Below are positions 58,753 to 59,448 of a stretch of 64,000 nt of DNA, one piece after another. How positions within the stretch are numbered: position 1 is the stretch's first letter; every line of letters starts with the position of its first letter. Origin of the DNA: Candidatus Heimdallarchaeota archaeon (lineage in GTDB: Archaea; Asgardarchaeota; Heimdallarchaeia; Heimdallarchaeales; Heimdallarchaeaceae); contig JAHLWR010000002.1 in the NCBI GenBank assembly GCA_019057815.1, forward strand, positions 206,284 to 270,283. Reading direction: 5' to 3'. The notes beneath the pieces were generated by a model. The model saw nothing but the letters and a program-made list of their open reading frames with translations, was not told the DNA's origin and ran no database searches. A program made the translations under genes and the position numbers.

Positions 58753-58855
58753 ATTTCAACCCCATAGCGTTTACAAAAAAAAGTGATTTTACTATAAAAA
58801 CAATTTATCAAGAGGGGACAAGGGTGAAAAAACACCCAATAATCAGACTTAATAG

Positions 58856-58926
58856 TGCTTGAGCTCATCGCTCCAGAGTAGAATCATGAAAATCATCTAA
58901 CCAATTGCTAGTCATCGCTCAAAGCA
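58856..58926 (-). ncRNA. Box C/D guide sRNA for pre-tRNA-Trp Cm34 and Cm39
   Basis: TGCTTTGAGC-GATGA-ctagCAATTGGTTag-ATGA-ttt-TCATGA-ttctACTCTGGAGCg-ATGA-GCTCAAGCA; terminal stem; both guides obey the D+5 rule. Confidence 0.8.
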
Positions 58927-59025
58927 TGATGATTATGTCCCAAGAAAAGTTAACAAGAATCTTTCTTAAATATGTTGTAATAGAGTGAATAGAATTAATA
59001 GATGAGATTTAGAGCTATACGATTT

Positions 59026-59238
59026 TTAAATTGATTTAGTTTTATCTTGGGTAAGTGCAGCTTGAGATTCTGCAGCAAATTGTTCACCCTCTGAACTATG
59101 ACCTCTCAAAAGGCTTCTCTTAACAGGAGATTTTGTTGAAAGTCTTAGAGAGTGTCTTCTTTTAAGTGTAATCAAGACACCAATAAGAATAAAGAAACCA
59201 CAAATAGCAAACAAAATAAAAAGACCAGTTGGAAACAT
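59026..59238 (-). CDS. Small single-TM hypothetical protein
   Basis: N-terminal hydrophobic helix then a basic segment; lies between tRNA-Trp and the sRNA. Confidence 0.55.
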   Translation of the reverse strand: MFPTGLFILFAICGFFILIGVLITLKRRHSLRLSTKSPVKRSLLRGHSSEGEQFAAESQAALTQDKTKSI

Positions 59239-59333
59239 CTAAGAAAATAAGGGAAGGGAAGTTAATAATACTATCGTTTTAAAAGCAGAGAAGAGGTAAA
59301 TAGTTGGAAAATAGAGTTAGGAGTAAAAATTTG

Positions 59334-59448
59334 TGGTGGGGAAGGGGTGATTTGAACACCCGACCAATTGGTTTCTTCGTGGATTGTCATTGTATTAACA
59401 ATGAAAAACTCTGGAGCCAACCACTCTACCGAACTGAGCCACTTCCCC
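59334..59448 (-). tRNA. tRNA-Trp(CCA) with a 38-nt intron at 37/38 (59373-59410)
   Basis: GGGGAAG/CTTCCCC acceptor, GTTGG-CTCCAG|intron|A-CCAAT, GGGTG-TTCAAAT-CACCC, CCA encoded; relaxed BHB CTCC/GAAG. Confidence 0.95.

Follow-up and report, generated by a model that had tools for sequence, protein, structure and literature searches.

A separately encoded box C/D RNA as the probable guide for C34 and C39 of the unspliced tRNA-Trp precursor in a Heimdall-group archaeon

The tRNA-Trp intron of Euryarchaeota is the textbook example of a tRNA intron with a job, that of methylation guide for its own exons. As summarised in a review (PMC7994747), the guide for pre-tRNA-Trp is encoded within the intron in Pyrococcus (sR50) and in Haloferax volcanii (Clouet d'Orval 2001; Singh 2004), and the ribonucleoprotein (RNP) formed on the Haloferax intron acts in trans on pre-tRNA-Trp (Singh 2004). 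In Pyrobaculum, a free-standing C/D small RNA (sRNA) gene, sR26, is aimed at C34 of tRNA-Trp (Lui et al. 2018, PMC6009581). The same review summarises dicistronic units of a tRNA and a C/D sRNA in Ignicoccus, Thermoproteus and Nanoarchaeum (Tripp 2017, cited in PMC7994747). Our search of the literature found no paper on the C/D guides of Asgard archaea, and a 2026 preprint devoted to the tRNA introns of Asgard archaea is silent on tRNA-Trp guides. Here we analyse a stretch of 64,000 nucleotides from Candidatus Heimdallarchaeota archaeon (contig JAHLWR010000002.1, positions 206,284 to 270,283), hereafter the window, in whose numbering positions are given and on whose minus strand the features given with coordinates lie. 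It carries an element, at 58856-58926, that is very probably a separately encoded archaeal box C/D guide for C34 and C39 of pre-tRNA-Trp. An intron-encoded tRNA-Trp guide in Euryarchaeota and a free-standing C34 guide in Pyrobaculum are already known; what the comparison of sequences appears to add is the cis-to-trans split of the tRNA-Trp intron guide, together with a retained intron that co-evolves with the guide.

The window's guide resembles the Pyrococcus and Haloferax intron guide, as the review outlines it, in its double specificity, with D on position 34 and D' on position 39, in having two duplexes that both span the exon-intron junctions, and in its protein machinery. It differs in being encoded separately, some 410 nt downstream of a tRNA-Trp gene whose intron is a box-less remnant of 38 nt, in facing a C and not a U at position 39, and in having AUGA as boxes D and D', with a compensating U in boxes C and C'. 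Like Pyrobaculum sR26, it is free-standing and targets C34 of tRNA-Trp, but for this crenarchaeal sRNA C34 is the only tRNA target given, and neither a position-39 guide nor pairing with intron ends is reported (PMC6009581). As in the dicistronic units, the sRNA lies downstream of a tRNA gene, at only about 60 nt in several genomes of genus g3; unlike in those units, an open reading frame (ORF) of 70 codons intervenes in the window, and the review's summary does not describe the sRNAs of such units as targeting the tRNA that they follow (PMC7994747). The locus thus offers a natural separation experiment in a clade of the closest archaeal relatives of eukaryotes, in which the guide has a gene of its own and the intron persists.

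The element has the full complement of box C/D sRNA parts, with a predicted mature size of 71 nt, and it is delimited both by its sequence and by two covariance models (R1 and R2) that we built. The parts follow one another in the order stem, C, D' guide, D', loop, C', D guide, D, stem. The 5' strand of the terminal stem (58917-58926), which is stem I of the kink-turn, pairs with the 3' strand (58856-58864) with one bulged U, and next to it stands the three-base kink-turn bulge G-A-U (58914-58916), assigned by the N-R-U rule. Box C, AUGACUA (58909-58915), keeps RUGA and has U, not G, at position 6; it lies 12 nt upstream of D'. Between them is the 12-nt D' spacer (58897-58908), the guide for C39, with nine Watson-Crick pairs. 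Box D' (58893-58896) is AUGA, as in all genomes of the family except one, and is followed by a 5-nt loop and by box C', AUGAUUC (58881-58887), itself 12 nt upstream of D. The D spacer (58869-58880), again of 12 nt and the guide for C34, pairs through its positions 2-11, and box D, AUGA (58865-58868), has the 3' strand of the terminal stem directly after it. Spacers of 12 nt are the archaeal norm for C/D sRNAs.

The canonical kink-turn consists of stem I, a 3-nt N-R-U bulge and tandem G:A pairs (Reichow 2007, PMC1865073), and all three are found at the terminal C/D motif of the window's element, where neither GA dinucleotide varies. The bulge of relatives has a variable first base, a purine in second place and a nearly constant U; the two bases ahead of the invariant UGA read GA, GG, AA, AG, UA or UG, and the sheared GA is constant. 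An internal C'/D' motif is also present, with its 5-nt loop and a spacer of about 12 nt on either side. An earlier note on this DNA had the 71-nt unit, its terminal stem and the AUGA boxes at 58893-58896 and 58865-58868 right in letters and coordinates, but it had placed box C at GCGATGA (58912-58918) and box C' at TCATGA (58884-58889), 2-3 nt out of register. It is the corrected register that yields two spacers of exactly 12 nt. Taking GCGAUGA as box C would give a 15-nt spacer and put stem bases inside the box, and the first GA of that heptamer varies in relatives: G58918 and C58917 are part of the covarying terminal stem, and G58916-A58915-U58914 form the N-R-U bulge.

The boxes of the window's guide depart from the RUGAUGA/CUGA consensus at C positions 5-7 and at D position 1. 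In the C/D kink-turn, position 6 of box C faces position 1 of box D. Across 38 guides this pair is G-C in f3, the sister family of the family of the window's genome (f1), U-A in most of f1, and A-U in G004, G007 and G032, the exceptions being U.U in G002 and A.A in G005. The same rule is equally valid at C'/D', where the U at C' position 6 pairs with the A of D'. Box D itself differs by clade, with AUGA in genera g1, g3 and g5, UUGA in g2 and g4, and CUGA in f3. Because the paired U in box C compensates for it, we read the AUGA D box as a conservative kink-turn variant and not as a defect. The earlier note had flagged that standard searches may miss these non-canonical boxes; they are real and kept in relatives, and no C/D family of Rfam matches the 58856-58926 element, even at E values up to 10.

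The same genome (G000) contains at least three further candidate sRNAs with AUGA as box D, at C11:9520-9569 (+), C1:216424-216473 (+) and C18:32361-32412 (+), in all three of which box C ends in UUU; candidate C/D sRNAs with canonical boxes lie at C5:47339 and C39:10354. Since the three AUGA candidates carry it, the U-A variant of the C6:D1 pair would not be peculiar to the tRNA-Trp guide, and searches locked to RUGAUGA and CUGA would under-count guides in Asgard genomes. A relaxed scan for a C/D pair with a terminal stem is noisy, with 81 matches in the genome vs 43 in the reversed control.

In box C/D RNPs the target base pairs with the fifth nucleotide upstream of D or D' (PMC1865073). The D guide of the window is a 10/10 complement of 59408-59417, that is, of G31-G37 plus intron bases 1-3, and its position 5 upstream of AUGA stands opposite C34 (base 59414). 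The D' guide is a 9/9 complement of 59365-59373, the last intron base plus A38-G45, with its position 5 opposite C39 (base 59371). These matches, with C34 and C39 as the bases predicted to be methylated, hold as first noted, and both duplexes cross the exon-intron junctions of the precursor. We scored the two spacers, with an ad hoc scheme, against the 16S rRNA, the 23S rRNA, 42 tRNAs and the pre-tRNA-Trp of the genome, and kept to these stable RNAs because a 9-mer complement search over the whole A+T-rich genome is uninformative. Among them, the D spacer has a 10/10 match in pre-tRNA-Trp alone, and for the D' spacer, too, pre-tRNA-Trp offers the best Watson-Crick pairing (nine pairs, one mismatch). 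The D' spacer also has one candidate site in the 23S rRNA, of six Watson-Crick and four G.U pairs, which ranks marginally above pre-tRNA-Trp by the ad hoc score and might suggest a guide directed at rRNA, for which the tRNA matches are secondary. That duplex is wobble-rich, however, no rRNA site for the D spacer comes near its 10/10 match on tRNA-Trp, and changes in the guide follow those in tRNA-Trp, so that an rRNA-directed guide seems to us very improbable.

The organism encodes the proteins that such an RNA requires for its function as a guide, L7Ae, Nop5 and fibrillarin. The genes for fibrillarin (PF01269, 303 bits) and Nop5 (PF01798, 220 bits) adjoin on contig C4, and the L7Ae family (PF01248) is represented in two genes. 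The open frame of Nop5, next to fibrillarin (G000:C4:36017-36694 (-), locus L062), has 493 codons, which is presumably long for an archaeal Nop5.

The guide is well conserved among relatives. By BLAST, a 106-nt region is 96% identical in the same genus and about 80-85% identical in a sister genus. The window copy scores 78-81 bits with models R1 and R2 and is the sole copy in its genome, and the covariance models find exactly one guide per genome in 27 of the 30 genomes of f1 and 10 of the 12 of f3; they find no match in four genomes of f2 and f4, nor in 36 genomes from other orders of the class. The proposal of a free-standing guide outside the intron is thereby borne out by a single copy in 37 genomes of two families, and in f1 and f3 all 31 tRNA-Trp genes read from genomes with such a guide have a box-less intron, of 27-40 nt. 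In f1, 60 nt to 5 kb nearly always separate the guide from tRNA-Trp, and the guide is usually downstream and on the same strand; in f3 there is no tRNA-Trp inside 1.5 kb of the guide. In the terminal stem, changes on both sides are seen across relatives in seven of seven pairs, and 86.7% of the stem cells are paired vs at most 43% with a slid partner, a score that none of 500 shuffles reached.

Anatomy, conservation, covariation and the presence of the protein genes are thus directly supported, and because the element is conserved with covariation in relatives, its origin by chance is unlikely. The departure of the D boxes from CUGA could be taken as the sign of a decaying remnant, or of a chance look-alike, without function. 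Against this, a single copy has been kept over two families while the stem, the box pair and the guide-target pairs all covary. Moreover, the C-D'-C'-D spacing, even relaxed, fits only 45 places in the 3.7-Mb genome, and the chance that both spacers match one 112-nt RNA is, by our own arithmetic, about 1e-5 or less. We therefore regard a functionless element as extremely improbable.

Each guide can also be compared with the tRNA-Trp of its own genome, which was done for 32 genomes of ten genera, including one copy (G019) that lies within an intron. In 32 of 32 the fifth base upstream of D faces C34 and that upstream of D' faces C39, and duplex lengths range from 9 to 11 bp for D and from 7 to 10 bp for D'. 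These genomes provide 26 distinct guide-target combinations, none of which has a mismatch at the first (i1), second (i2) or last intron base. At i2, G stands opposite C in f1 and U opposite A in f3. At i3 the pair is U-A in some lineages and A-U in others, and it is mismatched in 8 of the 26 combinations. The last intron base forms A-U in 24 combinations and U-A in two. In G019 both i1 and the last intron base are inverted along with their partners in the guide, and the last intron base is likewise inverted in genus g4 (G004, G007). Covariation extends into the anticodon stem, where positions 41, 42 and 43 change with the guide between U-A, A-U, C-G and G.U alternatives. Over the eight variable columns, pairing is seen in 184 of 208 cells, vs a mean of 154.6 +/- 4.5 after shuffling of the tRNAs among genomes (0 of 5000 shuffles reach the observed value), a statistic that is descriptive only, since related genomes are not independent. 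The lack of any mismatch at i1, i2 and the last intron base nonetheless carries weight.

Because guide and intron ends change in a compensatory fashion, this pattern is the principal argument for the unspliced pre-tRNA-Trp as the substrate, and it gives comparative support to the duplexes across both exon-intron junctions, proposed at first from a single genome. The first and last bases of the intron still co-evolve with a guide that is now separate, which suggests that the intron has a second role, as a landing site that would expose the anticodon arm and lengthen the duplexes.

Several observations weigh against a double guide acting on the precursor. In the kink-turn, 3b:3n is C.U, not U.U, and 4b:4n is U-A, not G-C. 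The putative promoter and terminator described below may be mere A+T-rich look-alikes. In G016 (L095) and G043 (L078), both of genus g3, the N+5 base of the D' guide is mismatched with C39, and in G024 (L083) the mismatch is beside that position. Complementarity in relatives that keep the locus, whose loss the earlier note had named as grounds for rejection, is accordingly retained at C34 in 32 genomes and broken at C39 in two. The C39 guide therefore seems not to be under equally strict constraint everywhere, and it may be decaying in some lineages. Finally, the pairs specific to the intron come to no more than 2 bp in the D duplex and 1 bp in the D' duplex.

This last point bears on whether a real guide might act on the spliced, mature tRNA-Trp, its pairs with the intron being incidental. 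Once the intron is removed, guide position 9 can meet A38 where intron base 1 had been, and G37 can wobble-pair in place of the last intron base, so that spliced tRNA-Trp would keep about 8 bp with each guide; the free-standing Pyrobaculum sR26 is also aimed at C34 of tRNA-Trp (PMC6009581). A guide for the mature tRNA would hardly account for the guide bases opposite i1, i2, i3 and the last intron base (-1), which change in step with the intron, nor for the retention of the intron in 32 of the 32 tRNA-Trp genes read, though the guide has left it. Action on the mature tRNA thus appears unlikely.

With the precursor as the preferred substrate, the following course of events can be proposed. The guide would be transcribed, probably from the intergenic region between the small ORF and a radical-SAM-like gene, and trimmed to about 71 nt. 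L7Ae would bind the terminal kink-turn (C/D) and the internal K-loop (C'/D'), and Nop5 and fibrillarin would then join. By pairing with G31-G37 and the first three intron bases, the D spacer would bring fibrillarin to C34; by pairing with the last intron base and A38-G45, the D' spacer would bring it to C39. Both duplexes would unpair the anticodon stem and lie over the splice sites, so that methylation should come before splicing. Transcription, RNP assembly, both methylations and the order of methylation and splicing are what we infer from the locus and its relatives.

An RNP with duplexes over both splice sites and one strand of the anticodon stem could also serve as a splicing chaperone or timer, beside or instead of methylation, and hold the precursor open until it is released. 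That the guide of sister genera is itself a likely substrate of the splicing endonuclease, through a bulge-helix-bulge motif, would link the two pathways. A strict placing of N+5 on C34 and C39, as seen in 32 genomes, is nevertheless something that a methylation guide needs and a clamp does not. The Haloferax intron and its methylations are, moreover, said to have been found dispensable by Joardar in 2008. A chaperone role is in our view improbable, and methylation of the precursor remains the reading that we prefer.

A guide that would direct methylation of the precursor from a gene of its own raises the question of where it came from. We propose that, in this order of Heimdall-group archaea, the guide function moved from the tRNA-Trp intron to a separate gene, and that the short intron remained and still supplies pairing partners. 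In the window the guide is not the tRNA-Trp intron: read for C/D motifs, the 38-nt intron lacks a C box and any paired set of boxes, and a single AUGA within it is possibly a vestigial D box. A phylum-wide model and pattern search placed the guide inside the tRNA-Trp intron in family f6, of the same class, and in f12 and f23, of other classes (loci L166 in f6; L157, L159 and L161 in f12; L156 and L160 in f23). In these three families exon sequence abuts the intronic guide directly on both sides, and the D' boxes are CUGA. Because f6, f12 and f23, as well as the published Euryarchaeota, keep the guide there, the intron is the likelier ancestral home, and the f1 and f3 clade would represent a relocation out of it. 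Of the two histories that the earlier note had left side by side, relocation thus gains support, and a free-standing guide as the ancestral state is disfavoured. A second relocation, independent of the first, is hinted at by f24 (L163), in which a free-standing guide lies about 120 nt from a tRNA-Trp gene whose intron has 15 nt. In f5, f7 and f2, which belong to other orders of the class, BLAST queries with the tRNA-Trp gene returned only T-arm fragments of other tRNAs, and a degenerate D-guide pattern gave background-level matches and no consistent candidate in f5.

Genome G019, of the sister genus g3, is a particular case, as its 85-nt tRNA-Trp intron contains a complete guide with AUGA as boxes D and D' (L053, G019:C188, 1423-1499, minus strand; tRNA-Trp gene at contig positions 1540-1684 and beyond). 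This tRNA-Trp gene is complete, with a second intron in the T-loop, and in this 82%-complete genome the covariance models found no free-standing copy. The identity of the G019 guide is 69-77% with the free-standing f1 guides and 57-59% with those housed in the introns of f6, f12 and f23; parsimony makes a re-capture likelier than a relic. One might speculate further, and tentatively, that the guide has shuttled by means of the tRNA-splicing machinery: an intron guide in the Asgard ancestor would have left the intron in the common ancestor of f1 and f3, would in g3 and g4 still be excised at a bulge-helix-bulge like an intron, and would have re-entered the intron in the g3 lineage of G019. If so, the short intron would have been kept since its ends dock a trans-acting guide, a selectable reason for the persistence of a tRNA intron.

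The flanks of the guide differ between genera. In g3 and g4 the free-standing guides are enclosed by a canonical helix-bulge-helix-bulge-helix, with a central helix of 4 bp that covaries between genomes, a 3-nt bulge on each strand and outer helices that reach 10 bp; it is found at L008, L004, L003 and other g3 loci, and at L087 and L088 in g4. The predicted excised piece is about 90 nt in g3 and 83 nt in g4, and the splicing endonuclease probably releases the guide in these genera. Unlike these guides, the window copy and that of its genus mate show no convincing bulge-helix-bulge. The best candidate in the window, with an inner helix of 2 bp and an excision of 163 nt, is at the chance level of A+T-rich flanks, and we rejected it. 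A TATA-like, A+T-rich octamer (58965-58972), about 42 nt upstream of the stem, is a possible promoter; it is identical in the same-genus genome G001, a relative too close to be informative. Downstream, the segment 58822-58845 is a possible transcript end, made up of a 7-nt strand (58839-58845), which could form a 7-bp outer helix with 58930-58936, and a G+C hairpin (58822-58837) with a loop of six T. The window copy may thus be an ordinary small gene whose transcript is trimmed to the RNP-protected core. One guide family would then occur in three formats within one phylum, as an intron, as a cassette framed by a bulge-helix-bulge and as a plain gene, which makes it a good system in which to study how archaeal guide RNAs move and mature.

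The tRNA-Trp(CCA) gene of the window, with its encoded CCA, occupies 59334-59448, as given by the Rfam tRNA model and by ARAGORN with the -i option. It is made up of a 5' exon (59411-59448), the 38-nt intron, i(37,38) (59373-59410, from ARAGORN -i), and a 3' exon (59337-59372). The Rfam model scores 54.4 bits on 59337-59448, and ARAGORN calls tRNA-Trp(cca) with the 38-nt intron when introns are allowed, whereas its default run misses the gene. The guide is on the same strand, at 447 nt from the intron, in an intergenic stretch flanked by the small ORF and the radical-SAM-like gene. The ORF, at 59026-59238, encodes an N-terminal hydrophobic helix and is also open in G001, with the N-terminal two-thirds identical and the tail diverged; it may be a genuine small membrane protein.

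The tRNA-Trp genes of several relatives have features of their own. A second intron in the T-loop follows TTCAAA in several of them, and that of G011 has an extra insertion past position 43; such genes with extra introns or an insertion, at L046 (G020), L053 (G019), L151 (G028), L152 (G026), L155 (G032) and L049 (G011), are overlooked or shortened by ARAGORN and Rfam. The 3' end of the tRNA-Trp intron is GAAGAA or a close variant (GAAGAU, GAAGUA) in g1, g2, part of g3, f6 and f23, and it is so whether or not the intron contains the guide. By pairing with C32-C35, apart from a mismatch of C34.A, the G-A-A-G at the intron end could provide the central helix of the splice motif.

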